A DNA stretch of 64,000 nt from an uncultured Candidatus Saccharibacteria bacterium (GTDB lineage: Bacteria; Patescibacteriota; CALEFQ01; G965231055), in assembly GCA_965231055.1 (NCBI GenBank), contig OZ246411.1:345875-409874 (forward strand), read 5' to 3'. This document shows positions 11,210-49,784 of the stretch, in pieces; the first letter of the stretch is position 1, and every line of letters starts with the position of its first letter. Under the pieces are notes generated by a model that saw nothing but the letters and a program-made list of their open reading frames with translations, had not been told where the DNA came from and did not search any database. Position numbers and translations under genes: made by a program.

Positions 11210-11283
11210 TTACGAGGTGACGCTAGCTACTAAAATCTGAAACTTCTAATTCTTCTAAAACCTATCACCTAAAACCTCAACTG

Positions 11284-31327: not shown

Positions 31328-31376
31328 GGTATAAGTAAATCGTATCTATTTTATCTATAATGTCTAATTTAGTCCA

Positions 31377-32192: not shown

Positions 32193-32345
32193 CTGTTTGA
32201 CGCGGGTTAAGATATGTTGCATAAAAACGGGGATAAACTAGTTGCCCAAATATAGACTTTATTATATAATTAGCAAGTAAATTTGCTCCTCGATTGGCTA
32301 ATTTTTAGCCGAAACACAAAAATCAACTTCAAAACAAAATTTTAA

Positions 32346-33446: not shown

Positions 33447-34339
33447 TGAAATCTTTTATCAAGAAAACAGTACTAATACTCATACTCTGTTCACTGGCTT
33501 TTGTTTATGGGGGAGTTATTGCTATCAATCCCACCGAGAAAGCTCAGGCTAACTGGTTAGCTAACTGGGAGCAGTTTGCTGATAGTTTTCTCGACATTTT
33601 GCTAGATACCATAATGGAGCTTATTGCAAAGATGGTGATTGTTAAAACCTTGGATGTAATACAGCAGAAAATCCAAGAGGAAATTTTTGCAGAGGGTGGT
33701 GTGATTGATAATATGGATGAGTATTTGCACGGAGATGTTGGCAAGGCTGCCGCAGATCTTATGAAGTGGTATGCTAATAATTGTTTCAATATAGATGTCG
33801 AGTTTTTTAATTTTGTTGGAAAAAATGCCTCGTATGATTTAGCCGAGTGTCCTCCTGTTTTGAAGGAAGGTTCGTATGCAAAGGGTGGATTTACAATTGA
33901 AGTTGGAGATGACAATACTATAGATACAGAGCTGAGTTTGGCAGAATATCTTAAGGAGTCAGCTGGTAGTGACATGCAGACATATCTCGAATTGCAATCC
34001 GCAGCTGACGAAGCTGAATCACGCAATGAAGCAAATAAGCTTGCCAACATGAGCTCTGATGGTTCAGTTGCGGTGACTGATGCGCTAGGCACTACGGAGC
34101 GTGCAAAAGGGGCATTACAAGATAAAGAAAAAATGATTTCTTGGGCCAAAGATTCTGTACTAACCAATTCTCAAAACTTAATAGCTTCAGTCCTGGCTCC
34201 TCTTTTGGAAAAAGCAATTGATAATTTTATCGCTGGGTCAACTGGTGTAAAGCCTAAATTTCATAACGGTCAGTATGGGATTGATTTTATCAATAAGTTT
34301 GAAGATGACTATAAAAAGGACGGCCCAGTCCAGTATTAA
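33446..34339 (+). CDS. secreted hypothetical protein (signal peptide)
   Basis: 297-aa ORF. N-terminus MKSFIKKTVLILILCSLAFVYGGVIA. Confidence 0.55.
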   Translation: MKSFIKKTVLILILCSLAFVYGGVIAINPTEKAQANWLANWEQFADSFLDILLDTIMELIAKMVIVKTLDVIQQKIQEEIFAEGGVIDNMDEYLHGDVGKAAADLMKWYANNCFNIDVEFFNFVGKNASYDLAECPPVLKEGSYAKGGFTIEVGDDNTIDTELSLAEYLKESAGSDMQTYLELQSAADEAESRNEANKLANMSSDGSVAVTDALGTTERAKGALQDKEKMISWAKDSVLTNSQNLIASVLAPLLEKAIDNFIAGSTGVKPKFHNGQYGIDFINKFEDDYKKDGPVQY

Positions 34340-34365
34340 TATTTTTATTGGTTAAAATACTTTGA

Positions 34366-34782
34366 ATGGCAAATATGCAAGACTATGCTGAGATGTTAAA
34401 GGCTGATAGGGAAGATGATCAAGAGGAAGGTAGTGATTCCGAAGATCAAGCCCAGGAACTAGCATCTGAAATGGCTAAAAGAAAAGCAAGTGAGGTTGCG
34501 GCTAATGCTGCTAACAAGATGAGGGTTGCGGCCATCGCTACGAAGAGGATGCTGGTAGCCTTTTTTACTAGTGTGATTTTGCCAGCCTTGCCTGTTTTAA
34601 TAGGTGGCGTGGTGGTGATCGCGTTAATTGCATTTGTTTTACTAGTACTAAGCTATCTAGATTTCAAAGCCGGAACTCCCATATATGATAGCGCAATAGC
34701 AGAAGAGATGAAATCGCGCGGCGAAAAAGTACAGTCTCAACTGATGACTGAAATGACAGGTACTCAATTTCCTCAAAAATAA
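34366..34782 (+). CDS. small membrane protein, first gene of the T4SS-like locus
   Basis: 138 aa. Acidic N-terminus, then a long hydrophobic stretch MLVAFFTSVILPALPVLIGGVVVIALIAFVLLVL. Confidence 0.5.
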   Translation: MANMQDYAEMLKADREDDQEEGSDSEDQAQELASEMAKRKASEVAANAANKMRVAAIATKRMLVAFFTSVILPALPVLIGGVVVIALIAFVLLVLSYLDFKAGTPIYDSAIAEEMKSRGEKVQSQLMTEMTGTQFPQK

Positions 34783-34789
34783 TAAAATA

Positions 34790-36928
34790 GTGAAAAAGAT
34801 TATTAAAACAAAAAATAGAAAATTATTTCTCTTGAGCATGGTTATATGCGCTTGTCTTTTTTTGGTTTTACTGCCGATGGGATTTGCTGGAGCTGGTTTT
34901 GAAATCATGTCATATGTAAATCAGATAATAGGTGCTGTTCTAACTTTCCTGATTAGAACAGTTTTGATGTGTATAGTATGGATCGCAGGTATTTTTGATG
35001 CTTTTGTGCAGGGTGTTTGGGCTAGAGATAGTGGTATGGTTGATTTGGGGTGGGGACTTGTGAAGGATTTGATGAACATGGGATTTATCTTGGTGATGCT
35101 TACTATCGCGTTTGCAACCATTTTCAAAATTCAGGCGTACTCTGTTAAAGCGCTTTTACCGAAGCTTTTAATAGCAATACTTCTTATAAATTTTTCCAAA
35201 CATATATGTTATGTAGTTGTGGATTTCGCTGAAGTTCTGATGTTCTCTATGAGTAACTCTGAAAATATTACATCTCTTGGTAGGGCGAAATCATTTAGTG
35301 CCTGGAAGGATTTAGAAGGATATAATGATGGTTCAACTGATGCAACGCAGATGTGGGCTAAATTTGATAGCAGATATAAGCAACCAAAGGGACAACATGG
35401 AATAGGTATGGCTTTGGTTTATGCTCTCGGGTTACCTCAGTTAGATATAAGCTTGGCTGCATCTCGTTTGGATACAAATCAAGCTGATGGTTCTAAATTT
35501 CATACCGGTGATTTTATCGTTCAGCTTGCGATGATCTTTTTATTTTCTTTGTATATAGCTTTTGTGATTTTGGGGTTGTTAGTGCTTTTTGTGGGTAGAA
35601 AAATTGGTATATGGATGTACACGATTTTTTCTCCTTATGCTTTTTGGACATTTACGGTACCATTTTTACGGAGCCATCTAAGTAAGTGGTGGTCGAAATT
35701 TGGTGGAATAGTTTTTATGGGGCCAGTCGCTATGTTTTATATATATCTTGCTAGCAACTTCATGGTTAAATCTCTTGCGACTAATTTAGAACCAATAGCT
35801 ATTAATGGCAATAATGTTGAACGATATTTCGAAGCTTTTCCTATAGGCCAGCTCAATGGTGACGCTATGTTTATTACTATAGTTGTTCTTGTGTTGCTCA
35901 CGATGGCAATTGGAACAGGTAAAAAAATGGGTATCGCCACGGCAGGTTTTGTGGAGAGTATGGGTAAAAAAATACAAGGCGGTATTACCAAGAGGCTCAA
36001 AAAGGGAGCCTCCAGAATTGGTTCTGCGGCTTGGTCTGGCACCAAAGGTGCAGTTTCTGCTACGGCAATGGGTACCAGGAGAGTCTTGCAAGGAACTCAG
36101 GATAAAGTTTTGTCTCAGTGGAAGGGCGCTCAGGAACGACGTAGTGAACGAAAGAAGGAAGTTGCTGAAAGTCAAAAGAATCTCGAGGGTTTATCCTCCG
36201 ATACTATTTCTGGTAGTCTAAATCAGTTTAAATCTACTCTTCTTGGAAGAATGACTAGGAAACAAAGGAATGATATTGGCGGAAGATTGAACGAGCTTTC
36301 GAAGAGGGGCGAGCTCGATAAGGCTATAGTTACAGATAGTAAGGGGGGGAGAAGTATAGCCGGATTCAATATTGATACCAAAGAAGGCGCAGATAAGTTG
36401 ATGAAATTTGCTGATTTTATTGGTGCGGACAGCAAAGCTATGATGAATGCTATGCCTGAGCTCTCAGCTGCAGGTATTAGTAAGTCTGATGCAAACGCGT
36501 CTAAAAGAGTTTTAGCAATTAAGGAAAAGATTAAAAAGGGAGAGGGTAAAAAGATTTCAAAGTCATCTCTTTCTGATTTTGCAGTTGCTGGAGCTCTTAG
36601 TTTGAATCAGATTAGAAACATAAATAAGGAAGGATCGGTTGATCAACAAGAGGCTCTTGTCGGTGGGATGGGTAAGGCTTTGGATATGGTATACGCTGGT
36701 CATATTACGGGGCAGGATGGGTTGTCTGTAATCAGAAATGCGAAAAATCTCGCCCTTGATAGTATGAAGGCAAGAGGAGAGCATACTAGGGGAATTGAAA
36801 AGGATTTTGATAAGTATAAAGTGAAATTTGAAAATGGTAATTTTGTCTTGATTCCACCCGCTCCTAATGTTGGACCCACTCAGCAACCTGCTCCACAGCG
36901 TCCCCCAAGAAATCAAAGACGACCTTAG
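34790..36928 (+). CDS. VirB6/TrbL-like polytopic membrane protein with hydrophilic C-terminal domain
   Basis: 712 aa. At least 7 hydrophobic helices in the first roughly 380 aa, then a charged or coiled C-terminal domain ending in a Pro-rich tail. Position immediately upstream of VirB3/VirB4 homologues. Confidence 0.45.
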   Translation: MKKIIKTKNRKLFLLSMVICACLFLVLLPMGFAGAGFEIMSYVNQIIGAVLTFLIRTVLMCIVWIAGIFDAFVQGVWARDSGMVDLGWGLVKDLMNMGFILVMLTIAFATIFKIQAYSVKALLPKLLIAILLINFSKHICYVVVDFAEVLMFSMSNSENITSLGRAKSFSAWKDLEGYNDGSTDATQMWAKFDSRYKQPKGQHGIGMALVYALGLPQLDISLAASRLDTNQADGSKFHTGDFIVQLAMIFLFSLYIAFVILGLLVLFVGRKIGIWMYTIFSPYAFWTFTVPFLRSHLSKWWSKFGGIVFMGPVAMFYIYLASNFMVKSLATNLEPIAINGNNVERYFEAFPIGQLNGDAMFITIVVLVLLTMAIGTGKKMGIATAGFVESMGKKIQGGITKRLKKGASRIGSAAWSGTKGAVSATAMGTRRVLQGTQDKVLSQWKGAQERRSERKKEVAESQKNLEGLSSDTISGSLNQFKSTLLGRMTRKQRNDIGGRLNELSKRGELDKAIVTDSKGGRSIAGFNIDTKEGADKLMKFADFIGADSKAMMNAMPELSAAGISKSDANASKRVLAIKEKIKKGEGKKISKSSLSDFAVAGALSLNQIRNINKEGSVDQQEALVGGMGKALDMVYAGHITGQDGLSVIRNAKNLALDSMKARGEHTRGIEKDFDKYKVKFENGNFVLIPPAPNVGPTQQPAPQRPPRNQRRP

Positions 36929-36942
36929 CTAGTAAATTTAAA

Positions 36943-38481
36943 ATGGATATAAACACACAAACAGGAATGCCGAAAGGTATAATGATAGCAAAAGGACATG
37001 CGGCTACTTTGCGTGTTTCTGCTTTGCTTAAGTCACATGGAGCAACCGATGAACAACTCAGAGGAGCATTCGGTGTTTGGGATAAACTTCTTGATAAAAA
37101 AATAAAATTTCAAGATTTTGCCAAAGAGCTTCAAATAGCTCTAAACTGCAGAGCTGATATGGCGGAGGTTGTTGCCGGAGAGCTCTCTGCCTCAGAGCTA
37201 AAATATCTGGATCCTTATTTTGGAGGAGTGGATGTTTTTGAGACTGCTAAGCAATGGATGAAACACGGGCGCAATTTTCTATTTTCTGACGCTGGTCCTA
37301 TAAACAAAAACACAGCTTCTCCTATTTCAGAAAATGTAGAAAATGAAGACCTGAGGGGGGTTAATATAAATTCTGAACCTAAGCCAGATAGCACTGATCA
37401 AGAAGATGAAAAAGTAGTAGGGCGAAATGTAAATACTCACAAGCGCAAAATTCTTGATAAAGAAAAACTTTATGAGATAACAAAAAAGATTTTGTTTAGT
37501 CAGGGAGTAGAGGGTTTGACAGAAGACAAGCTTCTGAGAATTCAAAACATAATGTTGAGTCAGGTAAAGGATGTGCGAGATACAAATGAAGCTACTCAGA
37601 TGTATGGTCTCGGTTTCGAAAATGGTGGAGTGGGTTTTGATCCTGAGAAAGCGTATTCACTAGCTTCTGCTATTAGTCGTTTAGTAGAGATAGGAAAGTT
37701 AACCCCAGATAAGTTTTATAAAGAAGAGGTTTATGAAAAATCTCAGAATGAACTTCGTGATCCTTGGGAGGAATACGATGTTAGGTCTGCTGGTAAAAAA
37801 GAGATAGTTAGCGAGAGTTACAAAAAGAAACTTTCCTTAGCATCTATTTTGCCTAAATTTGGTGCCAAATCACAAAGAGAAGATTTGAGCCATCAAAAAT
37901 ATGATGAACAAGATAATGCAATACCTTCATCTTTAAATCAGAAAAGCAATAAACTTTTTAGTAGAGAAGAATATGTACCAAAAGAACCTGAAAAGAAAAG
38001 GATTTCAGATTTTTCTTCTGCAAACTCGGGAGTGCTAAATCTAAAAAAACCAGAGCCATTTTTGAAAGAAACAGAGGCGCCAAAAAACCTCTACAGAGTT
38101 TCGGAAAAAATGACAGATGGCATATCAAGTGAAATAAAGAACAAAGGACCTAAAAATTTAGTCGAAATAAAAACCACGGAGGATCTTAAAAAACTTACAC
38201 CATCTTATTTGCGTATGATGGGGAGTAAGGAAGATATGCTTAAAAATCTTTCTGACGGTATCAGCGAGCTCGAAAAAAATGGATATAGCAAGGCAGATAT
38301 GTTTACCAAATGGCAAGAGAGTGAACTCTATACAACTTATTTGGACATGGGACGACAGAGTATATTTTCCGGAAATGATATAGCCAAAATAGCAACTACA
38401 TATAAAGATAATGGAAAGCCATACCTCGAGAGTTCAGAATTCGAAGTAGTTGCTGATGTTAGTAAAATGCTTCAAAACTAA
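36943..38481 (+). CDS. hypothetical soluble protein (T4SS-like locus component)
   Basis: 512-aa ORF with no TM and no recognised motif. Tightly packed between the VirB6-like and VirB3-like genes. Confidence 0.5.
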   Translation: MDINTQTGMPKGIMIAKGHAATLRVSALLKSHGATDEQLRGAFGVWDKLLDKKIKFQDFAKELQIALNCRADMAEVVAGELSASELKYLDPYFGGVDVFETAKQWMKHGRNFLFSDAGPINKNTASPISENVENEDLRGVNINSEPKPDSTDQEDEKVVGRNVNTHKRKILDKEKLYEITKKILFSQGVEGLTEDKLLRIQNIMLSQVKDVRDTNEATQMYGLGFENGGVGFDPEKAYSLASAISRLVEIGKLTPDKFYKEEVYEKSQNELRDPWEEYDVRSAGKKEIVSESYKKKLSLASILPKFGAKSQREDLSHQKYDEQDNAIPSSLNQKSNKLFSREEYVPKEPEKKRISDFSSANSGVLNLKKPEPFLKETEAPKNLYRVSEKMTDGISSEIKNKGPKNLVEIKTTEDLKKLTPSYLRMMGSKEDMLKNLSDGISELEKNGYSKADMFTKWQESELYTTYLDMGRQSIFSGNDIAKIATTYKDNGKPYLESSEFEVVADVSKMLQN

Positions 38482-39048
38482 ATGCAATTTTCATTACCAC
38501 AATTCATTGATGTAAAGGAAAAAATATTTGGGCCACTAACTCTTACCCAATTTATTTATATTGCAGCTGGTGGTGGTATGTCGTTTTTGTTGTTCCAAGT
38601 CTTGGAAATCGGCCTTTTTATAGTTGTGGCTTTTCCTATCATGGTTGTTTGTGTGATGTTGGCATTTTACAAATACAATGGAATGCCTTTTAGCAGCTTG
38701 GTTTTATCCATGGTTAGATATCTTTTGTTTAGACCGAGAGTGAGAGTTTGGAAAAGAATGGTTGAAACCAATATAAGAAGAGCTGAGGAAGCAAAAAAGA
38801 TTTCTGAGGGCGATACTCAGCACAAAGAATTATTGGATAAAAGTAGTCTTCAAAAATTGACATATGTGCTTGATACAGAGGGTGGAGCTCTTTTACACGA
38901 TAAGGGTGATGACACCAATAGAGTATCAAATGCGGAGTTATTGGATTCTCAGGCCGAATTATCTCAGGCCAGGATGGACAAAGTGATTCCACAGGTGCAG
39001 GGAGATAAAAAGAAGAGGGCAGAAGAACTACTCTCTGGTCTATATTAA
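38482..39048 (+). CDS. PrgI/VirB3-like small membrane protein
   Basis: 188 aa. N-terminal ...LTLTQFIYIAAGGGMSFLLF...FIVVAFPIMVVCVMLAF two-helix pattern typical of PrgI/VirB3-family proteins. Immediately precedes the VirB4 genes. Confidence 0.45.
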   Translation: MQFSLPQFIDVKEKIFGPLTLTQFIYIAAGGGMSFLLFQVLEIGLFIVVAFPIMVVCVMLAFYKYNGMPFSSLVLSMVRYLLFRPRVRVWKRMVETNIRRAEEAKKISEGDTQHKELLDKSSLQKLTYVLDTEGGALLHDKGDDTNRVSNAELLDSQAELSQARMDKVIPQVQGDKKKRAEELLSGLY

Positions 39049-39072
39049 AGAAATAATTTTAATAATTCTGAA

Positions 39073-39774
39073 ATGGAAAAACAAAAAGCGACAACTAGTT
39101 TGCACAATCCGTTACTTGCGAGGAATAAACCATCTGCTAGCACTCAGCATTTCTTGGATTTTTATGAGATAAGAGACGGAGTGGTGGTTATGAAGGATGG
39201 TTCTCTCAGGGCGGTTCTAATGATTTCGAGTATAAATTTTTCATTGAAATCTCAGGAGGAGCAAGATGCTATAATATATGCTTATCAAGAATTTTTGAAT
39301 TCAATGGATTTTCCATTGCAGATACTGATTCAGTCTAGGAAACTGGATATCGATAACTATCTTGAAAAACTTTCAAATCAAGAGATGAAGCAACAAAATG
39401 AACTTTTGCGCATACAAACGGCTGAATACATGGAATATGTGAGAGAGCTTGTGGAAATGGCACAGATTATGAGTAAAAACTTTTATATCGTGATTCCTTA
39501 TAGTGGTGCAGGAGATCAAAAAACCAAAAAAGGTATCAAAGAATTTCTAAATCCCGCCGTTGTTGTGACTCAAAGCGAAAAAGCATTTCAGAAAGCTAGA
39601 ACTAGGTTGCTCCAAAGACTCAGTCATGTAGAGAGTGGTCTCCAGTCCCTCGGATTAAGAGTTATGCCTCTCGAAACTCAGGAGCTTATCGAGCTTTTAT
39701 ACAATACCTACAACCCCTCCAATTATGAATCAGAGAAGTTAGTTGAAGTAGATAAATTAGAATTACAAAAATAA
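39073..39774 (+). CDS. VirB4/TrbE-family ATPase, N-terminal domain as a separate ORF
   Basis: YEIRDGVVVMKDGSLRAVLMISSINFSLKSQEEQDAIIYAYQEFLNSMDFPLQILIQSRKLD...ELLYNTYNP follows the CagE/TrbE/VirB4 N-domain pattern. Stop lies 4 nt before the next ORF, in a different frame. Confidence 0.55.
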   Translation: MEKQKATTSLHNPLLARNKPSASTQHFLDFYEIRDGVVVMKDGSLRAVLMISSINFSLKSQEEQDAIIYAYQEFLNSMDFPLQILIQSRKLDIDNYLEKLSNQEMKQQNELLRIQTAEYMEYVRELVEMAQIMSKNFYIVIPYSGAGDQKTKKGIKEFLNPAVVVTQSEKAFQKARTRLLQRLSHVESGLQSLGLRVMPLETQELIELLYNTYNPSNYESEKLVEVDKLELQK

Positions 39775-39778
39775 AATT

Positions 39779-41605
39779 ATGGCGATATTCAAAAAACAAA
39801 CGAGCAATTCAATAATGGACACAGCTGCGCAAGAAGCTATTCTTGAGGCACAAAGAATCTATAGAGAGGGAGTAGCAACAGTCAAAGACATCATAGCTCC
39901 TGCGTCTATGCAGGTTACACCAAATTTCGTGAGACTTGGTGATAAGTATGTGCGAACTATTTTCGTATATGCGTATCCTAGATTTCTTCAAACAAGCTGG
40001 TTTTCTCCTATAGTAAATCTAAATGTTACTGTTGATATTTCTATGTTTATTTATCCGGTAGATACTGAAATGCTTTTAAAGGACTTGAAAAAGAAAACTA
40101 CTCAAATTCAGACTCAGATAATGCTTGCTGAAGAAAAAGGCATGGTAAGAGACCCGGTCCTCGATACTGCTTTTAGAGATGTTGAAGAACTGCGAGATAA
40201 ACTTCAGCAAGGTACTGAAAAGTTTTTCAAGTTTGGTTTGTACATAAATATTTATGGAAACGATAAAAAAGAAATGGATTCTGTGACAGAGCAGGTTGAA
40301 TCTTTACTTGGAACGAAACTTGTTTATTCCAAGCATTCAACTTTTCAAATGGAACAGGGATTCAATTCATGCATGCCTCTTGCAAATGACGAAATGGATA
40401 TTACAAACAACATGAATACTTCTCCTCTGTCTACTACTTTTCCATTTGTTTCAAATGAGCTTACCTCAAACGACGGAATTTTGTACGGTATTAATAGACA
40501 TAACAATAGTTTGGTTTTGTTTGATAGATTCAGTTTGGAAAATGCCAATAGCGTTATTTTTGCAAAATCTGGAGCTGGAAAAAGCTATGCGACAAAACTC
40601 GAAATCTTGAGAAGCTTGATGTTGGATACTGAGGTTATAGTTATAGATCCTGAAAATGAATATAAATATCTAAGCGATGCTGTGGGTGGAACTTATCTAA
40701 ATATTTCGTTGAATGCAGATAATAGAATTAATCCCTTTGATCTTCCAAGACCAATCGGCGAGGAGACTACAGCTGATCTTTTGAGATCTGCCACAGTTTC
40801 ACTTTTGGGTCTCATGAGTTTGATGCTAGGAAAACTTGATCCCACCGAAGATTCTATCATGGACAGAGCTATTTCCGAGGCCTACGCCAAAAAAGACATA
40901 ACTGCAAACACGGATCTTTCCAAGGGAATAGAGCCTCCCACAATGCAGGATCTAAAAGAAATACTGGGAAGTATGGATGGGGGAGAGAGTTTGGCACAGA
41001 GATTGGAAAAATATACGGCTGGTACTTTTGCCGGAGTTTTCAATCAGCCAACCAACATCGAAATGGACAAACAGTTCGTGGTTTTTAGTATTAGAGACCT
41101 GGAAGACGAACTCCGACCAATAGCAATGTACGTTATTTTGGGTCATATTTGGAATATAGTAAGATCGAAGCTCAAGAAAAGAATGGTTGTAGTCGATGAG
41201 GCTTGGTGGATGATGCAACACGAAGACTCTGCGAAATTTTTGTTTGGATTGGCGAAAAGGGCTAGAAAATATTATTTGGGTGTAACTACGATAAGCCAAG
41301 ATGTTGCAGACTTTTTAAATTCAGAATACGGAAAAGCTATCGTGACAAACTCATCAATGCAGTTGCTTCTCAAGCAATCTCCCGCAGCGGTGGACTTGCT
41401 CGCTGATGTTTTTCACCTGACAGATGGAGAAAAGTTTCTACTTCTTGAAAGTGGTGTTGGCGAAGGAATATTTTTTGCGGGGCTTAAGCATGTCGCTATA
41501 AAAATAGTAGCTTCATATACGGAAGATCAAATTATAACTAGCGACCCGAGACAATTACTTGAAATTGAGCAAGCTAAAAAAGAGTTTGATGAAAAATCAG
41601 AGTAA
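39779..41605 (+). CDS. VirB4/TrbE/PrgJ-family type IV secretion ATPase (P-loop domain)
   Basis: Walker A FAKSGAGKSYATK, VIVIDPENEY, Walker B MVVVDEAWWMM, and ...TTISQDVADF... C-terminal motifs. Confidence 0.8.
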   Translation: MAIFKKQTSNSIMDTAAQEAILEAQRIYREGVATVKDIIAPASMQVTPNFVRLGDKYVRTIFVYAYPRFLQTSWFSPIVNLNVTVDISMFIYPVDTEMLLKDLKKKTTQIQTQIMLAEEKGMVRDPVLDTAFRDVEELRDKLQQGTEKFFKFGLYINIYGNDKKEMDSVTEQVESLLGTKLVYSKHSTFQMEQGFNSCMPLANDEMDITNNMNTSPLSTTFPFVSNELTSNDGILYGINRHNNSLVLFDRFSLENANSVIFAKSGAGKSYATKLEILRSLMLDTEVIVIDPENEYKYLSDAVGGTYLNISLNADNRINPFDLPRPIGEETTADLLRSATVSLLGLMSLMLGKLDPTEDSIMDRAISEAYAKKDITANTDLSKGIEPPTMQDLKEILGSMDGGESLAQRLEKYTAGTFAGVFNQPTNIEMDKQFVVFSIRDLEDELRPIAMYVILGHIWNIVRSKLKKRMVVVDEAWWMMQHEDSAKFLFGLAKRARKYYLGVTTISQDVADFLNSEYGKAIVTNSSMQLLLKQSPAAVDLLADVFHLTDGEKFLLLESGVGEGIFFAGLKHVAIKIVASYTEDQIITSDPRQLLEIEQAKKEFDEKSE

Positions 41606-44600
41606 ATTTGAAAATAAATCTATAAAAAAAGCAAGGCCAGTGTCATATTTCTGGACCAAGGTTATTTTTTTATTCACAATTATTGCTGGTTTTTCTTTGT
41701 GGCTTAGTTTTTTTATTAGTTCGGAAAATACCGCAAAGGCCTCCGTTATGTTTTCTTGGAGCCACGATGATGTAGATATAGGTGGTGATACTGAGACGGA
41801 GTATTGGAATCTTTGGGAGCTCCCAGGATATCCATCTGGTATGGCAGTTTCAGCAGGAAAAATGACTTTTCAGATCAAGGGTTTGGGTTCAAATGGAGCT
41901 TCGCAGGATGGAAAGAGGAATATAATAGGAATGATAGATAGGTCAGGGGGAGAGAATATGGCAGATAGAAATTACTGGGTGCAGGTCAGGAAAAGAAAAT
42001 ATGATCCAGAAACAGGTACGAATGCAAGATTGGAAGTTAAGGGTAGATTAAATTGTGAATGGTTCGATAATACTGCTTTTCATTCGGGTGATCCTTCTTT
42101 GGATTATGATCCTGATGTTTGGTACGATGCGTGGTTTGAGTGGAACCAGCACAGTGTTGTTTTTGGATTGTGGCATCCTGATGGATATGAAATTGTATCT
42201 GAGGCTCAAATGCCGATTCCTTTCATGGCAAGTAATCAAGCCATTTGGTTCGGAGCAGCTCCCGTGAGTGCTGCTTTTCCCGCTCAGCATGCCGAGTATA
42301 GAGATATTCAGCTAGATGCCTATGAGCTTGTTGAGGCTTCAGTTTTGGTTGGTGAGAAATGCGATCTTAGCGAAGAAGAATTGTATGAGGATGAAGGATT
42401 TGAAGATGAAGATGCTGACTTGGGGGGATCAGATAGTCAACCCAATGATCCTTATGGAAAATATATCTGCGTAGGGGGTGGAGCCGAGAATGATGTAAAA
42501 CCAAAATTTCCAGAAGATTCTTATTCTTACAATTGTTCTGACCTAATAGACGTGAATCCTCTAAAATGGGTTTTGGGCATTGATTGGGAAGAATTTAGGT
42601 ATAAATTTTCTCCAGTGTGGGGGATAACAGCGAAGGATATTCTTAGTTTTTTTGAGTGTTATTCGGAAAAACAAGGTGCTACCCCACCTTCTGTTACCAT
42701 ATCCACTAGTCCTCAAAATATTCAATATGGAGATGAAGTAAATGTAAAGATAGCTGCCAATAACTGGAAAACTAAAGCTGATAAACTTTATAAAGCCTTT
42801 TTTATAGATAATCTTTTCTATAATTCTGTATTGGCTGGAGGTACTCTACCCGAGCACTCAACGAATTATCCTGACGGTTTTGCATCGCTTCATGGTGATA
42901 AAGGGCCAGCTTGTACGCCTGTCACTAGAAGACCAGAGATTGATACTGACAATGATGGAATGGATGATGATTGGGAGAGACTCTACTTTGACGATCTCTC
43001 GGCTGGAACATGGGAAGATCCCGATGATGATGGATATATTGCTGATCGTTTTAAGAGTACCGAAAATGATTATTATATAACCCCAGTGGTTCCAATTGAT
43101 GTTCCAAATAAAACAGGTACTGGTAGAACTTTGGTTTTGCTTGGTAGCGATGATACAAAAGAAGCATTGTATGACGGAATGCCTGAAACTGATGATAGAT
43201 TTCCAAATATTTTAGAATATATCTTTGGTACCAATCCCATAGACGGTGATAGTGACGGAGATGGAGTCGGAGATGAAGAGGATATGTTTGGTACTGGAAT
43301 AAATTCTGATAATTTTTATTTTCAAACATTTAAAGAGCCAGAGGAAGGAAAGGATTCCAAATATGAAGTTAGGGCTATCGTGGTTGGTGTAAATGAAAGA
43401 AAAAAGATAAGTGTTGTTTCTGCAAAGAGTGTCTTGGAGATGCAGCGATCAAATTTGGAAGTTCTTGGAGTTACCATAAATCCTTCTTCATCGTCAGTTG
43501 CCAAAGGTGAAGAAGTCAATATAAAGGCGGTTGCCAGGGGCGCAGGAAATATAAAAGGTGCCTCCGTGAATTATGAATGGGGAATTGTAGATGTTGATGG
43601 AAATTATACTCCTGTTTGCGATCAAGTTGGATCAAATAATAGTGACACTATCTGCGGAGTCGGAAAAGATAATTGGAGTTTTAAAATACCAGATGAAGCA
43701 GCGGCTGGGGTAGAATACACCATATATTCTGTAGCTACAGACACTGTGACTGGTAGAAGAGCAGAAGCTAGGACCAAAATCACCGTTGGTGAGAGTCTAA
43801 AACCAACTATCGCAGGTTGTTTTGATGATGGTTCAGCTAGGGGATGCCATTCTGAATTGCCGCAATTTTCAGCTTGTGCTGCTGGAGAAAATCCCGATTA
43901 TGTTATTCAGGGAGAATTTGCCTTGATAAGGGCTGGCAATGCAGAGGAGGTGACTTTGGACCAAAATTCTGTTTGTACGTGGAAGCTTGACGGAGAGGTT
44001 CAGAAAGAAGATAGCGGAGCATGTAAGCAGTGTTTTTCCAATACCAGTGGTGGTGTGAAAGAAGATTCTTCTTGTAGCATTAGCGGATTGGTGTGTGATA
44101 GAACTGCTTATCTTCTGGAAGCAAATGCAGTCACCGGACATGTTTATGATTTAGAATTAAGTGTTTCTGATAAGAAAACGGGAGAAGAAAAAGCAAAGAC
44201 AAATGCGAAGATAGAGGTGAAGGGGGTAGAATCAGAAATTTGTATTGATGGTGAGTGTACCCCTGATCACGATACTCAGAGATTTAATGTAAGCAATTCA
44301 GGTTCTCATTCGGCAAGCGCTACTTTGAGAAACATTCCTAAAAATTCTACATACAAATATATGTGGACTTTGGATGGTGTAAATGCAAAAAGTGGCTCCT
44401 GCGATGTAGCTGATTGTTCACCCGAAGATTTGAGTATTAATACTGAGCTATTTGGTTTGGGCTCGCACGATGTTTCCTTCAAAGTCACTGTTTCAACGGA
44501 ATATGGTGAGAATGATGAGATTAGAAGATTTTTTAATGAATCTGGTGTAAAATTGAATATAGTAGCAGAAGGTTCCACTACAGCTTTTTGGCAAAAACTA

Positions 44601-44732
44601 AATATTATGGGTACTATTGCGGATGTTTTTCCCGATAAGTACCGAATAATATTTACTATTTTTTCTGTAACTGCTGGTTTTTCTGTATTGGGTTTTGCCG
44701 GAGTAGTAGTTTTTAAGAAAATATTTGGTTAA
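41559..44732 (+). CDS. giant surface protein (1,057 aa) with N-terminal signal-anchor, Asp-rich Ca-binding repeats and C-terminal TM anchor; paralog of the next gene
   Basis: Hydrophobic N-segment VIFLFTIIAGFSLWLSFFI. DTDNDGMDDDWE and DGDSDGDGVGDEED repeats. C-terminal IIFTIFSVTAGFSVLGFAGVVVF. The start may be the ATG at about 41589, as the listed start overlaps VirB4. Confidence 0.7.
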   Translation: MKLSKLKKSLMKNQSKFENKSIKKARPVSYFWTKVIFLFTIIAGFSLWLSFFISSENTAKASVMFSWSHDDVDIGGDTETEYWNLWELPGYPSGMAVSAGKMTFQIKGLGSNGASQDGKRNIIGMIDRSGGENMADRNYWVQVRKRKYDPETGTNARLEVKGRLNCEWFDNTAFHSGDPSLDYDPDVWYDAWFEWNQHSVVFGLWHPDGYEIVSEAQMPIPFMASNQAIWFGAAPVSAAFPAQHAEYRDIQLDAYELVEASVLVGEKCDLSEEELYEDEGFEDEDADLGGSDSQPNDPYGKYICVGGGAENDVKPKFPEDSYSYNCSDLIDVNPLKWVLGIDWEEFRYKFSPVWGITAKDILSFFECYSEKQGATPPSVTISTSPQNIQYGDEVNVKIAANNWKTKADKLYKAFFIDNLFYNSVLAGGTLPEHSTNYPDGFASLHGDKGPACTPVTRRPEIDTDNDGMDDDWERLYFDDLSAGTWEDPDDDGYIADRFKSTENDYYITPVVPIDVPNKTGTGRTLVLLGSDDTKEALYDGMPETDDRFPNILEYIFGTNPIDGDSDGDGVGDEEDMFGTGINSDNFYFQTFKEPEEGKDSKYEVRAIVVGVNERKKISVVSAKSVLEMQRSNLEVLGVTINPSSSSVAKGEEVNIKAVARGAGNIKGASVNYEWGIVDVDGNYTPVCDQVGSNNSDTICGVGKDNWSFKIPDEAAAGVEYTIYSVATDTVTGRRAEARTKITVGESLKPTIAGCFDDGSARGCHSELPQFSACAAGENPDYVIQGEFALIRAGNAEEVTLDQNSVCTWKLDGEVQKEDSGACKQCFSNTSGGVKEDSSCSISGLVCDRTAYLLEANAVTGHVYDLELSVSDKKTGEEKAKTNAKIEVKGVESEICIDGECTPDHDTQRFNVSNSGSHSASATLRNIPKNSTYKYMWTLDGVNAKSGSCDVADCSPEDLSINTELFGLGSHDVSFKVTVSTEYGENDEIRRFFNESGVKLNIVAEGSTTAFWQKLNIMGTIADVFPDKYRIIFTIFSVTAGFSVLGFAGVVVFKKIFG

Positions 44733-44735
44733 AAA

Positions 44736-47700
44736 ATGAATACTAATTTTAGAAAAATTAAAATTCTATGTACCGGCTGTGTTATCTTGGTTGGTCTTTT
44801 TATTTTGCTTTTTTCAAATAATGTAAATGCTCTTCCTAAAAATCCTGACAGTGGGGCTTGCACCGAAGACGGAGCTCCTATAAATTTCGACGTCGCAGTT
44901 AGAAAATCAAATAATAGCGGAACGCCGGGGAGTATTAGGGCAAATATAGGCGCTCTCGGGGGAGACCCTGTAGATTTTGGAAACAGTTCTGTGGGTTCTA
45001 GCGACTATACTTTAAAATTTTCTTGGAGCGATGATGGTACTGCCAAAGGTTATATAAATGGAATTGAAGTAGGTTCTGGAAATTTTACTGCGGATTATTC
45101 AGGAACAGTGAAGGATTTATTCTTTGTTTATCTCGGAGAGGGTGTGGCTGGTATATCTAGGTCAAGCGACACTAGAATATTTTATAAAAATATAAAAGTA
45201 TCAGTTGATGGTGAAGAATTTGTTGATACTGCTTTTAATACAACAGATCTCTCCCAGAGCGGAGCGAGTGTGCAAGGAGGAATATTTGTTGGCGATTATT
45301 GGCACATGAGTTCATCGAATACTGGGAGAATCAAGTTTAGTTTTCCAATGGGGCAGTCACGAAGAGTTAGTAGTGGAGAGGTTACTTTGGTTTTTAAATT
45401 TGCAGATGATTTTGACGAATATCAAGCTACAAAAACTTCGTTTGAGCCGGAAATATTTAATTTTGGCACTTTGCCTTGGGTTTCTGAGTCAGAATGTGCT
45501 GATATGCCTGAAAATGACAATGAGCCAACCGAAGATCCTTCGGAGGAGCCAGAGAATAATCCCGAAGATCCATATGATACTGAAACTTGCTTTGGAGTAA
45601 GCGAGGATGAGCCACCTCAAATAGTTGGTATTCCTGGTATTCCTTTTGGATGGGATTCTAGCAAAATGAAGCTAGTTTGGTTTTGGGATTTTGAAACAGT
45701 AAAAAATTGGCTTGAGGGTTACGAAGAGCGCATGCAAGGCAAGCCAAGCGTAGAAATTGCTATTAGTCCAACAGATCCTGCCGATGGCGATAGTGTTACT
45801 GTTTCACTGCAAGCTGAAAACTTTAGGACTAAGGCTGGTGGTACAGGATCTTCTTCCAACAAAACATATTCTGCTGTATTTATTTCAAGTGAAAATGATT
45901 CAAATCACAGAGATCAGTTTGGAGATAGATATTCTGGTCCCGTACTTTATAATACCGTTTCTGCTGGGGGAGTGGTGCCTCAGATGGTGATTGAGGGTAC
46001 TCCAAATTTAGGAGATTTGTGCAGGGATTTCACCAGAATTCCAGAAATAGATTCTGATGGTGATTCCATGGATGATGATTGGGAATATTTGCATTTTGCT
46101 GGTACAAATAAATGCGGTCCTTTAAATGATACATATTGTGGTGATTCAAAAGATCAAGTTATTCAAATGGTATCGCCAGATGCTGATCCCGATGAAGACG
46201 GAGCAGAAGCTACTAGATTTAAAAATGATGATGAAAAATATGCTACTCCCATATCTTTCATGAGGAAAGGTATAGCTGGCGGTGGAGTAAAACCAGAAAC
46301 GTATATTGTGGGAAATGCAAATAAAGATGGTTTAAAGGATGGCAGCGGAGATATAAACGACCTTACGACACCAGCTTTTATGAACTGGCAAGAATATGTA
46401 GCTGGAACTAACCCCATCAATTCAGATACGGATGGAGATGGTGTTACAGATGAGAAAGAAATATACGGAGAGGGTTTTAGTACTATTGAATGGATGGCTA
46501 AGGGTGAACCCCATGACGAAGCCAAAGTTAATGCAATAGTAATAGGCATAAGTCAGCGAAAAGATCTTGCCATAGTTTCAAAAGAATCAAAAATTTATAT
46601 GGGAGATGGTTCCTCTCAGGGCAAGCTCAGTGTTGTTTTGAATTCCTCCCTGAATCCAATAGTAATAGGTCAGCCCGTAGACATAACGGCTACGGCTCAA
46701 GGCTCGGTAAGTGGAGATTCAAGCTCCGTGAGTTTTGAGTGGGGCTTGGTATTTGGCACCGAAACATTTTCCATATGCGATACAATGGCTGATGGCGATA
46801 ATCCTAGGTGCGGACTAGGAAAGGATACTTGGATGTTTAATACTAATGACTTCAAAGATCAATTGGACGAATATTTTAGTGCAGGAAATGATTACCTAGA
46901 GGTTTATGTAGAAGCAACCGACACCATTTCTGGTAAAAAAGCAGAAGCTAGGTTGAAACTATATATAGGAACCGAATCATTGCTTAGAGTCTCGGGCTGT
47001 TACAAGGATACTTTGGGATTGGAAGCCGTTGAATGTAGTTGTTATGTGAGCAATACGATTGATCCCACGGAAACTTCTTGCGGACTTCAGGGTGAGAATT
47101 TGATGATCGGAACCAAGGGGGAAACTTTTTCAGATGATGAACTTAAGGATATGCTTTTTGAATGGTCTATTGATGGTGATAAAATTTCAGAGTCTTCGGG
47201 TTCCGGATATCAGGACTACAGGCTGGCCGATGGAACAGATAAGGTTATGAAAAGAGATAGCATGATTATTCCAATAATGAAAAACGGTGGAGATTCTTAT
47301 GAGGTTGAATTGCTTGTTTCTAGAATAGATACTGGCGAAAGAGTTGATGGTGGTAAAATTTATGTTGGGGTTGGTAATCCCAGTATCGATCTTTCAGTTA
47401 ATGGAGCCAGCATTGATCACGGAGAAGAAGTCTTTAATATAGGAGATACTGGAACTTACACTATTGACGGACAGATTTACAATATTCCTTTGAATTCGGA
47501 ATACGAATATAAATTCATGATTGATAATATTGTTATTGGTTCTGGTGCTAGCGTTTATGACTCAGTAGGTAAAACAGAAAGTATTGATATAAATTCTTCT
47601 TACTACTCCTCGGGAAGGCATAATATAAAAATGACGGTTTCAGGTGCAACCTCGAGTGAGGCTACTAGTGAAACTGAGGTTGCGAAGAGGGGAGCTGTTC

Positions 47701-47903
47701 GTAGATTTTTCGGAGAAGGATATGGTATAATAAATATAACTGACAGCGAGACTGGTCAAGCTTTTATGGATAAAGCTAGGTTTATGGCATCGGGTTTTTC
47801 AAATATAATGGCGAGTGCGGTCAGGGTTACTGGCGTGGCAGGTCTTGCTTTTGTAGGCTTCTATGGAATTTTAAGATTATTTGATAAAAGAAAAATTTTC
47901 TAA
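44736..47903 (+). CDS. giant surface protein (1,055 aa), tandem paralog of 41559..44732
   Basis: Same architecture. DSDGDSMDDDWEYLHF and NSDTDGDGVTDEKE repeats. Shared ...KAEARLK/TK... block and RRFF...TM C-terminus. Confidence 0.7.
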   Translation: MNTNFRKIKILCTGCVILVGLFILLFSNNVNALPKNPDSGACTEDGAPINFDVAVRKSNNSGTPGSIRANIGALGGDPVDFGNSSVGSSDYTLKFSWSDDGTAKGYINGIEVGSGNFTADYSGTVKDLFFVYLGEGVAGISRSSDTRIFYKNIKVSVDGEEFVDTAFNTTDLSQSGASVQGGIFVGDYWHMSSSNTGRIKFSFPMGQSRRVSSGEVTLVFKFADDFDEYQATKTSFEPEIFNFGTLPWVSESECADMPENDNEPTEDPSEEPENNPEDPYDTETCFGVSEDEPPQIVGIPGIPFGWDSSKMKLVWFWDFETVKNWLEGYEERMQGKPSVEIAISPTDPADGDSVTVSLQAENFRTKAGGTGSSSNKTYSAVFISSENDSNHRDQFGDRYSGPVLYNTVSAGGVVPQMVIEGTPNLGDLCRDFTRIPEIDSDGDSMDDDWEYLHFAGTNKCGPLNDTYCGDSKDQVIQMVSPDADPDEDGAEATRFKNDDEKYATPISFMRKGIAGGGVKPETYIVGNANKDGLKDGSGDINDLTTPAFMNWQEYVAGTNPINSDTDGDGVTDEKEIYGEGFSTIEWMAKGEPHDEAKVNAIVIGISQRKDLAIVSKESKIYMGDGSSQGKLSVVLNSSLNPIVIGQPVDITATAQGSVSGDSSSVSFEWGLVFGTETFSICDTMADGDNPRCGLGKDTWMFNTNDFKDQLDEYFSAGNDYLEVYVEATDTISGKKAEARLKLYIGTESLLRVSGCYKDTLGLEAVECSCYVSNTIDPTETSCGLQGENLMIGTKGETFSDDELKDMLFEWSIDGDKISESSGSGYQDYRLADGTDKVMKRDSMIIPIMKNGGDSYEVELLVSRIDTGERVDGGKIYVGVGNPSIDLSVNGASIDHGEEVFNIGDTGTYTIDGQIYNIPLNSEYEYKFMIDNIVIGSGASVYDSVGKTESIDINSSYYSSGRHNIKMTVSGATSSEATSETEVAKRGAVRRFFGEGYGIINITDSETGQAFMDKARFMASGFSNIMASAVRVTGVAGLAFVGFYGILRLFDKRKIF

Positions 47904-47904
47904 A

Positions 47905-48330
47905 ATGAATACTAAAAACAATTTGAAAATTTCCTTACTATTACTGATTTTGATTGCTTCATTTTGTATTGCCAATGCTGTTTTTGCTACAGAAGCCGAT
48001 ACTGACAAAGTAAAAATGGGAGTTCCTGGTGGACCAGAGACTTATAGTGAAGAAAATGGATTGCAGAAATATGTAAGCGGAATTTTTACTTGGGCTATCG
48101 GTGTTGCTGGTGTGTGCGCTTTGATTATGGTTATTTTTGGTGGATATCAGTATATGGCCTCTGCTTCAAATCCTGAGCTCAAGAAAGTAGCAATAAATAC
48201 GATAACTCAGGCGCTCATAGGTCTCGCCATAGCTATTTGTACATTTGTTTTGCTTAAAACAATAGATCCCAGTATTTTGGGTTTGCAGCTAGAAATTCCT
48301 GAAGTAGGAGTTTCTGGCGATAGCCATTAA
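47905..48330 (+). CDS. VirB2/TrbC-like pilin candidate (signal peptide plus two hydrophobic helices)
   Basis: MNTKNNLKISLLLLILIASFCIANAVFA signal peptide. Then FTWAIGVAGVCALIMVIFGG-YQYMASASNPELKK-AINTITQALIGLAIAICTFVLL, the classic T4SS pilin topology. The listed ORF start 47881 overlaps the previous gene, so the ATG at 47905 is preferred. Confidence 0.45.
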   Translation: MNTKNNLKISLLLLILIASFCIANAVFATEADTDKVKMGVPGGPETYSEENGLQKYVSGIFTWAIGVAGVCALIMVIFGGYQYMASASNPELKKVAINTITQALIGLAIAICTFVLLKTIDPSILGLQLEIPEVGVSGDSH

Positions 48331-48334
48331 AAAA

Positions 48335-49705
48335 ATGAAAACAAAAAAAATACTCATTATTGTTGCTGTGATATTGGTCGTAGCTATTGCTGTGGTGTAT
48401 TTTGTATTTATTAGAAAAGATAGTAGTTCTGAAACAGCGAATAATTCAGGTGCCAATTCCAATCAGAATCTCTCATCAAATGAAAACAGCAGTAATGATG
48501 CCTCATTTTCTGAATTCCCATATTTAAGTCTTCCCGAGATTTCGAGAATAGTAAAAAGCGAGACTATCTCACCAGCGCTTTCTGATAGTGGGGAGGAAAT
48601 AATATATTTTGATACAAACAAAGGTGATTTTTACTCTGTCGGAATAGATGGAAATGGAAATAAAGCGGTTTCAGAAAAAAGTTTTACTAGCGTGAAAAAT
48701 GTTAATTTTTCATCAAAAGCAGATAAAGTAGCTATAACGTTTTCAGGTGAAAACGATGAGGACAAAGTGTATATTTATGACTTTTTTATTAAATCTCTTA
48801 ATAAGCTAAGTCCAAATATAAGTGGTGTAGCTTTTGCTCCAGATAGCGAGTCCATTGTTTATCAATACGCCGATAATCAAGCAAAAATATACAATATAAG
48901 CAAAGCTCTTTCCGATGGATCTTCTTTTCAGAAATTGAAAGATTTTTATTCCCCAGGGGCAAGTATAAGATGGGAAGAAAGCTTCGATAAAATTTTTATC
49001 ACGGATTTGCCTTCTAGTAATGCTCTGTCGAATCTTTATTCACTGACAACCAGTGGAGAACTCAACAAAATTATTGATTCTGTTTATGGTCTTCAGGTGG
49101 TATTTTCGCCAAATGGAGATGGTTTACTATATTCATCTCTTAGCGCAGATAAAAAAACACTTTCTTTATTCTATGCTGATGCGAAGGGTAGGATCAAATA
49201 CAATTTGCGTTTGGCTACTTTTGCCTCCAAATCAGCAATAAGCCCAGATGGTAAATATGCTTATGTGGCAGTTCCTGTTAACATCAAGAAGGGTTCAAAA
49301 ATAGAAATTTCTAAATACTCTGAGGGTAGTACTACTCTCACCAAAGATCAGATATGGAGAGTTGATCTTGGTACGGGAGAAAAAGTTATGATCTTAAATC
49401 CTGAAGAGTATAATTTTATTGTTGATGTGAGAAATCCTTTTCTATCTCACGATGGAAAAATGATGTTTTTCTGGGATAAAGGGGACAAGGGAATTTATGC
49501 AGTCAATCTTTCTAAGCTCGAATCAAAAGAGGGATTAGAAAAAACTAGCGCAAAAGATCCATCAGAGGATTCTGATTCGGATAATTCTGGAGAAGAAGAT
49601 GGTGATACTCAAAACAATACTACCGATGACGATGCTTCCAATGAGAGTAATGAAGAAGAACAGAAGACACCAGAGCAGAGACTTTTTGAAAAACTTGGTT
49701 TTTAA
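48335..49705 (+). CDS. membrane-anchored protein with TolB/PD40-like beta-propeller repeats and acidic C-terminal tail
   Basis: N-terminal TM ILIIVAVILVVAIAVVYFVFI. Recurring ...SPDG/SPNGD...Y motifs (FSPNGDGLLYSS, ISPDGKYAYVAV, LSHDGKMMFFWD). D/E/S-rich C-terminus. Confidence 0.45.
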   Translation: MKTKKILIIVAVILVVAIAVVYFVFIRKDSSSETANNSGANSNQNLSSNENSSNDASFSEFPYLSLPEISRIVKSETISPALSDSGEEIIYFDTNKGDFYSVGIDGNGNKAVSEKSFTSVKNVNFSSKADKVAITFSGENDEDKVYIYDFFIKSLNKLSPNISGVAFAPDSESIVYQYADNQAKIYNISKALSDGSSFQKLKDFYSPGASIRWEESFDKIFITDLPSSNALSNLYSLTTSGELNKIIDSVYGLQVVFSPNGDGLLYSSLSADKKTLSLFYADAKGRIKYNLRLATFASKSAISPDGKYAYVAVPVNIKKGSKIEISKYSEGSTTLTKDQIWRVDLGTGEKVMILNPEEYNFIVDVRNPFLSHDGKMMFFWDKGDKGIYAVNLSKLESKEGLEKTSAKDPSEDSDSDNSGEEDGDTQNNTTDDDASNESNEEEQKTPEQRLFEKLGF

Positions 49706-49784
49706 CATAAAAAAACTAAAAAATCCCTCCATTGTGGGGGATTTTATTTTGGGGTAATATTGATTAGTAAATTAAAACAATACA

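Follow-up and report, generated by a model that had tools for sequence, protein, structure and literature searches.

A locus of 15 kb (positions 34366-49705) lying within a stretch of 64,000 nucleotides (nt; the whole stretch analysed is hereafter "the window") of contig OZ246411.1 (assembly GCA_965231055.1, positions 345,875 to 409,874 of the forward strand), from an uncultured member of the Patescibacteriota, encodes the inner-membrane complex of a monoderm type IV secretion system (T4SS) together with a VirB2-type pilin; this gene set is vertically inherited and under purifying selection, and no conjugation genes lie within reach. With a probability of roughly 80%, the locus is a chromosomally inherited, relaxase-less T4SS of the Patescibacteria clade, derived from the mating-pair-formation class FATA (MPF-FATA), placed in a setting of the ABY1 type (Falkowbacteria and relatives) and having a role in host contact and translocation, not in conjugation. 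The core of the system and its neighbourhood are already known from the literature of 2023 and 2025, and the new part is an accessory module that comprises two giant surface proteins.

The original prediction, made from the letters of the same DNA, had seen here a T4SS-like machine of the PrgI/PrgJ type as reported in Patescibacteria, and on this central point hidden Markov models (HMMs), synteny and a published survey (PMC12102498) all agree. The gene composition, which had been regarded as unusual, is for the most part standard for the clade, the surface-protein module being exceptional.

Core genes of the secretion apparatus

Between 34366 and 49705 there are ten non-nested open reading frames (ORFs), and not eleven genes as first claimed; all are present on the plus strand, as are the further genes of the locus discussed below, and their tight, co-directional packing is as predicted, with spacing ranging from -47 to +24 nt. 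Because the DNA is only 38% GC, the ORFs exceeding 1000 codons are real and not products of chance. An alternative genetic code was considered and discarded, the long ORFs being intact under table 11 and TGA being a stop in the relatives.

The assignments to the VirB3 and VirB4 families are upheld by models scoring above their curated cut-offs. The PrgI/VirB3-like membrane protein (188 amino acids [aa]; 38482-39048) matches PF12666 with 51.8 bits (cut-off 27), and its gene directly precedes trsD in 72 of 80 related loci, the latter having been collected by a VirB4 protein scan in which one genome per species was retained. The VirB4-family ATPase (608 aa; 39779-41605) is of the monoderm (MPF-FATA, CD1110/CTn2-like) type: it scores 381 bits with NF045971 (CD1110 family; cut-off 325), above what is obtained with the models for the Mycoplasma type of integrative and conjugative element (ICE; 254 bits), F-type TraC (192 bits) and generic VirB4_CagE (118 bits), and it is also matched by P-loop_TraG, AAA_10 and CagE_TrbE_VirB. 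Both the Walker A (GAGKS) and the Walker B (DEAW) motifs noticed at the outset are visible in its translation.

What had been taken for a VirB4 split into two ORFs is an ancestral pair of genes, TrsD and VirB4 (39073-39774 and 39779-41605), in a conserved arrangement that is normal for the clade. The first ORF of the pair encodes a TrsD-like protein of 233 aa that matches NF041427 TrsD (E 5.9e-7, under the curated cut-off of 200 bits), the N-terminal region of VirB4_plasma (E 2.5e-11) and the N-terminal part of TraC_F_IV; its TAA stop (39772-39774) is followed, 4 nt on and in a different frame, by the virB4 ATG (39779). A frameshift, a programmed frameshift or a pseudogene at this junction is ruled out because TrsD and VirB4 are encoded apart in all 79 of the 79 related loci that hold both, with zero fusions, and because the offset between their frames is random (0, 1 and 2 in 27, 25 and 27 loci, respectively). 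In Patescibacteria at large, TrsD is the most abundant T4SS component and is usually encoded beside virB4 (PMC12102498).

The identity of VirB4 is 61-67% to the 80 loci and 74-94% to the closest relatives; over the 80 loci the median identities are 64% for VirB4, 47% for RecG and 44% for RadA. In the comparison with locus L085, the closest full-length relative, VirB4 is 77% identical as against 50% for RadA and 31% for KsgA, and the ATPase is therefore under unusually strong constraint. The exposed parts diverge fast. The further identities to L085 are 54% for TrsD, 33% for the pilin, 31% for PrgI, 30% for the VirB6-like protein and, among the surface proteins described below, 35% for the TSP3-repeat protein, 27% for the propeller and 23-28% for the giant proteins.

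The 712-aa protein (34790-36928) has about seven transmembrane (TM) helices in residues 1-400 and, after them, a C-terminal domain of about 310 aa that is basic and hydrophilic. Direct Pfam support for the proposed VirB6/TrbL-like nature of this polytopic membrane protein was not obtained, the protein itself having no match in either Pfam or NCBIfam; its acceptance as a putative extended VirB6 relies on homologues and structure. Indeed, of the 64 proteins retrieved from a database (among them the entry of the query itself), several had previously been annotated as TrbL (PF04610) or PF19590, and 20 of 47 homologues match Pfam TrbL when scanned singly. An AlphaFold model built on the alignment of the homologues has a predicted local distance difference test score (pLDDT) of 72 as a whole and of more than 90 in its membrane core, and its top Foldseek hit is TrwI/VirB6 of R388, at a level that is not significant (probability 0.87, E 0.55).

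The gene that precedes prgI encodes a soluble protein of 512 aa (36943-38481) which, as originally described, belongs to no recognised family: it has no TM segment and consists of a helical N-terminal domain, a low-complexity linker and a conserved C-terminal domain of about 120 aa, and the searches of Pfam and of the PDB sequences gave no match, also when a profile of 30 sequences was used. A word-indexed search returned the query alone; homologues were obtained with an iterated HMM search over the fetched loci. Relatives are found in 58 of the 80 loci and lie no more than 300 nt upstream of prgI in 51 loci (e.g., 7292-8782 in L005); furthermore, 18 loci have a second copy, usually a shorter paralogue located just upstream. 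The 512-aa protein is probably a conserved cytoplasmic partner of the T4SS.

The pilin (149 aa; 47881-48330), a VirB2-like candidate in the original prediction, has a signal peptide and two hydrophobic helices and is recognised above cut-off by both curated pilin models (PF18895 T4SS_pilin, 30.4 versus 26.6 bits; NF045849 Mbov_0395 pilin, 44.8 versus 40); when searched with a pilin HMM, the window yields this single copy and no other. The protein fits T4SS (VirB2) models and not prepilins, and the label "competence-pilus-like" initially given to the locus had to be dropped: PilB/PilT, PilC and prepilin-type pilins are not found in the locus, and competence-type pilus genes are located in a separate cluster past the 3' end of the window. 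In the related locus L032 a single ORF (15958-17307), called from the first possible start codon, carries both a T4SS_pilin domain (E 1.7e-9) and an SLT lytic transglycosylase domain (E 2.2e-18) and would be a VirB2-VirB1 fusion.

The first of the ten ORFs (34366-34782) encodes a small membrane protein of 138 aa in which two hydrophobic helices come after a polar N-terminal half. The searches gave no sequence homologues of this protein; its architecture resembles that of the 128-145-aa two-TM proteins encoded 3' of virB4 in the loci L084-L089, to which it might be equivalent by analogy only.

The surface-protein module and the probable limits of the operon

The junction between virB4 and radA is the place where this locus departs from most of its relatives. 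Here it spans 8.1 kb and contains the genes of two giant proteins, of the pilin and of a propeller protein; homologues of the giant proteins are present in none of the 80 virB4 loci, and in 59 relatives the sole gene between virB4 and radA encodes a protein of about 207 aa (e.g., L005 11854-12489 and L023 11846-12469) composed of an N-terminal TM helix, by which it is anchored, a low-complexity linker and a C-terminal domain of about 130 aa. This protein might correspond to the VirB8-like component that has been described chiefly from ABY1. The search for a homologue of it in the window found none, the only similarity being that of low-complexity and TM segments to the propeller protein.

The giant proteins, surface protein A (1057 aa; 41559-44732) and surface protein B (1055 aa; 44736-47903), had been presented as paralogues of about 1,056 aa, and their 29% identity over 827 aa (E 2e-67) indicates that they are indeed true paralogues. 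The length of protein A refers to a TTG start; the database gene model begins at ATG 41589 and yields 1047 aa. In protein A a signal/anchor segment is followed by a beta-sandwich head (residues about 56-265; about 55-250 in the structural model), a Cys-rich region with TSP3-type Ca-binding sequences, including two DxDxDG motifs, a series of immunoglobulin (Ig)-like domains (residues about 575-990) and a C-terminal TM anchor. Protein B is paralogous to A across the stalk (residues about 276-1055), and its N-terminal head is unrelated. Both proteins have a hydrophobic segment at the N-terminus and end in a TM helix; among the 46 best family members, the former feature is seen in 42 and the latter in 32.

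With a word-indexed search these proteins looked like orphans, the query alone being returned and even the paralogue being missed; this proved to be an artefact of the prefilter, and a full HMMER scan of 1.84 billion representatives uncovered 92 relatives at E <= 1e-3 (46 at E <= 1e-10), the region shared among the 92 being mainly that of residues about 340-760. A metagenome scan resting on generic TSP3 motifs gave one irrelevant locus. With the family profile, a match to the Ig domains of phage T4 Hoc was obtained (E 2.3e-14), and a few members match Pfam TSP3_bac or PKD. An AlphaFold (AF2) model of protein A, built on an alignment of 40 sequences (pLDDT 75), retrieved with Foldseek generic arrays of Ig/MG domains only (complement C3/C5, Hoc, cadherins, contactins and an archaeal S-layer). 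Family and model point to proteins with the architecture of a membrane-anchored fibrous adhesin, for which a binding function would be expected. As to the heads, that of protein A is common to six relatives, and the five whose context was checked are T4SS-linked; for that of protein B (residues about 31-270; 44736-45550) no relative was found, even within its own family set. The N-terminal head profile, when compared with the PDB sequences, gave spurious matches to designed repeat proteins only.

The genomic context was inspected for six of the relatives. In five of them (L084-L089) the giant genes come directly after trsD-virB4 and a small two-TM ORF, forming tandem arrays of two or three paralogues that are followed by one or two pilin genes and by a gene for a propeller protein of about 410 aa; further 3', where the contig extends, there are radA, sometimes the same glycosylase gene as in the window, and recG. 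The order in L085 is ksgA - TSP3 protein - 283 aa - VirB6-like - ... - PrgI - TrsD - VirB4 - three giant proteins - pilin - propeller - RadA. The present locus is a lineage-specific version of a known core, with a surface-protein module that recurs beside virB4 in at least five other metagenomic genomes.

The last gene of the module (48335-49705) encodes a beta-propeller of the WD40/TolB-like kind (456 aa), anchored, as had been proposed, by a single N-terminal TM helix and ending with an acidic low-complexity tail. It matches the WD40 protein 2ymu_A of the PDB (E 7.8e-22) and, under the cut-off, TIGR02800 TolB (E 3.3e-9); homologues are encoded 3' of the pilin gene in L084, L085, L088, L089 and L032.

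The locus had been assumed to start at 34366 and more likely begins two genes earlier, at 32346. The first of the additional genes (32346-33446) encodes an acidic TSP3-repeat surface protein of 366 aa (PF18884 TSP3_bac, E 1.6e-13) with one N-terminal hydrophobic segment serving as membrane anchor, and has in L085 a homologue occupying the same slot between ksgA and virB6. The second (33446-34339) encodes a protein of 297 aa with an N-terminal signal/anchor segment, without a match in the Pfam and PDB searches, whose N-terminal part has a weak homologue (E 3.5e-8) in the same slot of L085. The stop of the 366-aa gene overlaps the start of the 297-aa gene by 1 nt, and 26 nt separate the latter from the 138-aa gene. 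Since these two genes are tightly spaced and have the same place in L085, they are joined to the unit, and the operon probably extends over 32346-49705; it is given as 13 genes (the ten listed plus the two upstream), the gene of the 366-aa TSP3 protein being the first.

A sigma-70-like promoter match (TTGCCC-17-TATAAT; 32242-32270, plus strand) falls in the 153-nt gap 3' of ksgA and could be the start of the operon; this is a match to the consensus only, scoring 10/12 and joint top in the interval 31000-50990, where the scan gave 65 sites as compared with 56.8 expected. At the other end, a terminator-like hairpin CCTCCATTGTGGGGG followed by a T-run (49726-49740, plus strand), the first in the hairpin listing and a pattern match only, falls in the 79-nt gap preceding radA and is the probable end of the operon.

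Chromosomal setting and alternative explanations

Judging from the titles of the records, the 80 related loci belong mostly to metagenome-assembled genomes of the Patescibacteria type (Falkowbacteria, Uhrbacteria, Doudnabacteria and the Parcubacteria group), and many bear other or uninformative titles (e.g., "uncultured Gammaproteobacteria"). Their layout is [virB6] ... 512-aa-like - prgI - trsD - virB4 - ~207-aa ORF - radA ... recG(-) - 223-aa gene(-), with radA located 3' of the locus in 50 of the 80 and recG in 48 of them. In the window the locus is preceded by pcrA, ubiA and ksgA and, farther upstream, by comM and the gene of a dinG-like helicase; it is followed by radA, a methylpurine glycosylase gene, recG, comF and recX. 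The comM, comF, radA, recX, recG, dinG-like and pcrA genes, to which attention had been drawn originally, were verified with Pfam, and the comparison of the synteny across relatives indicates that the chromosomal flanks are conserved. The GC content is 0.36-0.41 throughout the window, the locus included. Vertical inheritance follows from the Patescibacteria type of the relatives, the synteny with radA and recG and the uniform GC content.

This setting corresponds to that described in the literature. The VirB4s of Patescibacteria fall for the most part into a single clade, itself nested in MPF-FATA (Quinonero-Coronel et al. 2025, PMC12102498), TrsD, PrgI, VirB6 and VirB2-like pilins are encoded near virB4, and relaxases are almost absent; the genes comF, recG and radA accompany the locus in ABY1, where ksgA is another frequent neighbour (PMC12102498). 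The present locus shares with the ABY1 systems the separate TrsD and VirB4, PrgI/VirB3, VirB6, the VirB2-like pilin, the MPF-FATA type of VirB4, the chromosomal site by ksgA, radA, recG and comF and the lack of relaxase and type IV coupling protein (T4CP) near virB4. It differs from them in that, here and in at least five other cases, a module of about 8 kb replaces the ~207-aa ORF between virB4 and radA and in that two extra secreted proteins (the TSP3-repeat and the 297-aa protein) are encoded 5' of virB6.

As predicted, domain searches of the window ORFs of at least 150 aa revealed no relaxase, VirD4/TcpA-type T4CP or VirB11, nor any T4SS-DNA_transf, TrwB or FtsK-like match, and no relaxase, T4CP or VirB11 is found directly outside the window, among the genes called in the 10 kb downstream of it. 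Within these 10 kb there are two proteins of 151 aa and 1133 aa of no recognised kind, followed by a type IV pilus cluster; the latter (L081 16001-21863, i.e., about 4-10 kb past the window's 3' end) consists of pilM, pilO, pilB (MshEN+T2SSE), a response regulator gene, pilT and pilC. Because the pilus cluster begins shortly past the 3' end of the window, the T4SS and the type IV pilus loci are within about 14 kb of each other.

Of the two roles originally offered for the apparatus, DNA uptake or cell-cell contact, the former is suggested by synteny only and is disfavoured in Saccharibacteria (PMC10633639, PMC12857230), the latter being in line with the host-contact role favoured here. A T4SS importing environmental or host DNA, in the manner of Helicobacter ComB and archaeal Ced, and handing it to ComF, ComM, RadA, RecG, RecX and DinG/PcrA is the explanation that survives best after the preferred one, and we consider it improbable. 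The genes of these putative recipients are indeed in the window and the linkage to radA and recG is widespread among the relatives, their co-localisation in ABY1 having already been remarked on in the survey, where functional coordination was suggested (PMC12102498); however, adjacency conserved in tiny, streamlined genomes can be historical, and a terminator-like hairpin and a 79-nt gap are interposed between the locus and radA. The absence of a relaxase and of a coupling protein is a trait that the locus has in common with ComB and with the Ced system of Sulfolobales, as uptake systems too typically lack them, and its linkage to recombination and competence genes is a further point of contact; on the other hand, neither the VirB7/9/10 outer-membrane core of ComB nor CedA, CedA1 or CedA2 is matched here, and the similarity to CedB is weak (41.8 bits, E 5.6e-11, as against a cut-off of 700), as is that to CedD (18.5 versus 600). 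Furthermore, in the sole genetically tractable relative competence depends on type IV pili and ComEC, and it is the T4SS that is essential and comEC that is dispensable (PMC10633639, PMC12857230), and in the present genome the separate type IV pilus cluster, about 14 kb downstream, could serve competence. The low weight given to DNA uptake reflects the genetics of Saccharibacteria, this separate pilus cluster and the probable terminator before radA.

Much less credible is an ordinary ICE whose relaxase, coupling protein and integrase are placed outside the part examined. Since this part begins at position 1 of the window, such genes could sit upstream of it, and T4CP homologues are often encoded far from virB4 (PMC12102498); moreover, five tRNA genes in a row (10388-11359) adjoin a tyrosine recombinase gene (11438-12412, minus strand; Phage_integrase, E 1.3e-43), the product of which could be XerC/D-like or the remnant of an integration site. 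However, dozens of genomes have the same flanks, with ksgA upstream and radA and recG downstream, the GC content is uniform, neither a relaxase nor a T4CP domain occurs in the 64 kb and in the 10 kb downstream, the survey detected relaxases in no more than 103 of 3,035 genomes of Patescibacteria (PMC12102498), and the recombinase, the only one present, is 20 kb away from the locus, with PNPase, lspA, comM and pcrA in between. Because of the conserved flanks, the distance of the recombinase and the lack of relaxase and T4CP, an ordinary ICE is excluded as far as the data reach; the original prediction, too, had argued against a conjugative element.

Least credible of all is a decaying, non-functional remnant of a conjugation system. 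It might be suspected from the VirB4 N-terminal homology being borne by an ORF of its own, out of frame with virB4, which could be read as pseudogenisation, and from the failure to recognise a VirB8 or VirB1 homologue. However, none of the genes is disrupted and their packing is tight, the two-gene arrangement is shared by all 79 loci with random frame offsets, VirB4 is the most conserved protein of the region (77% versus 31-54% for its neighbours in the comparison with L085) and the homologous system is essential in Saccharibacteria (PMC10633639).

Proposed function at the host interface and comparison with known systems

The role in host contact and translocation proposed here draws on what is known in Saccharibacteria. 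Transposon-insertion sequencing demonstrated that Southlakia epibionticum requires the homologous T4SS cluster, pilins included, for its epibiotic growth (Wang et al. 2023, PMC10633639); this T4SS has no recognisable relaxase or coupling protein (PMC10633639), and from the dispensability of comEC for viability it was deduced that the essential role of the T4SS is not DNA uptake (2025 review, PMC12857230). The Patescibacteria T4SS is the first T4SS shown to be essential for the growth of its owner. The Southlakia system (SEML1_0006-0019) and the present one have in common the Gram-positive-like subunits, the VirB2-like pilin and a presumed role at the interface between epibiont and host. They differ insofar as Southlakia has an array of six divergent pilins and, 3' of virB4, peptidase and lysozyme genes that are essential, whereas a single pilin and no hydrolase are encoded here, where the twin surface proteins and the propeller are extra; the two organisms also belong to different classes, and essentiality has been shown in Southlakia only.

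A second term of comparison is offered by the conjugative T4SSs found in Gram-positive bacteria (pCF10 prgF-L with PrgB, CTn2 CD1110 and pGO1 trsC/D/E), which share with the present locus PrgI (VirB3), a CD1110-type VirB4, TrsD and a PrgH/VirB6-like channel protein and which, as is presumed of it, depend for cell contact on large surface proteins anchored in the wall or the membrane. Unlike those systems, the present one is chromosomal and not mobile, has no recognised relaxase, PcfC (T4CP), VirB8-like PrgL or VirB1-like PrgK, possesses a VirB2 pilin that they do not have and has surface proteins unrelated in sequence to PrgB.

In the mechanism that we propose, VirB4, aided by TrsD and tethered by PrgI, would drive the building of both a VirB6-based channel and a VirB2 pilus or conduit across the single membrane and the wall. 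The putatively co-transcribed envelope-anchored proteins, namely the twins (a lectin-like head on an Ig stalk), the TSP3-repeat protein and the WD40 propeller, would hold the apparatus against the host cell, the twins acting as the adhesins that Gram-positive T4SSs normally need. By analogy with Saccharibacteria, the cargo exchanged by epibiont and host through the system would be protein or some other host-derived or host-directed molecule, as has been proposed there, and not conjugative DNA.

A more specific extension of this scheme, which we regard as tentative and somewhat doubtful, is that in an ABY1-like lineage the T4SS has adhesins dedicated to host recognition, made up of the tandem Ig/TSP3 proteins with their swappable heads, the TSP3 protein and the anchored WD40 propeller. 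These would be functional counterparts of PrgB, for which the 2025 survey had no equivalent in Patescibacteria, and the diversification of the heads (that of A being shared and that of B unique) would set the host that is docked to and fed from.

Several considerations weigh against the identification of the locus as a host-contact T4SS of the Patescibacteria clade. The placement of VirB4 in this clade is based on identity to relatives and not on a tree; the search for relaxase and T4CP covered the window and 10 kb of a genome of about 0.84 Mb, and T4CP homologues, whose usual distance from virB4 was mentioned above, are common in Patescibacteria genomes (PMC12102498). Essentiality and host dependence are extrapolated to ABY1 from another class, Saccharimonadia, in which the locus includes arrays of pilins and hydrolases of the cell wall, both lacking here. 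No VirB8-like or VirB1-like protein is matched by Pfam or NCBIfam in the locus; these components are variable and are not needed for membership of the Patescibacteria clade (PMC12102498). Finally, the adhesin role of the twin proteins is argued from architecture and linkage only, and a more distant member of their family (P0083, in L090) is not encoded beside a T4SS.

A gene for a LysM + M23 peptidase (26069-27214, minus strand) is located 7 kb upstream of the locus, and its product, the closest wall hydrolase, might be a partner of the apparatus; M23 and LysM domains occur in VirB1-like proteins of Patescibacteria (PMC12102498).

The survey of the patescibacterial T4SSs did not recognise such a module and, by its own account, came across no adhesins in the data it covered (PMC12102498). 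The window adds nothing to the core of these systems; it indicates that T4SS-linked surface proteins recur in an uncultivated class in which adhesins had not been detected before. The surface-protein module and the 512-aa family represent concrete candidates for host recognition and substrate handling.

As for the remaining contents of the window, the dinG-like gene (17994-20675, plus strand) encodes a DEDDh exonuclease (RNase_T, E 6.2e-27) joined to a DinG-type helicase (Helicase_C_2, E 4.8e-44). Two ORFs near the ends, 1574-5296 (plus strand, 1240 aa) and 61983-63845 (plus strand, 620 aa), have no Pfam match, and an ankyrin-repeat protein is encoded at 9376-9897.

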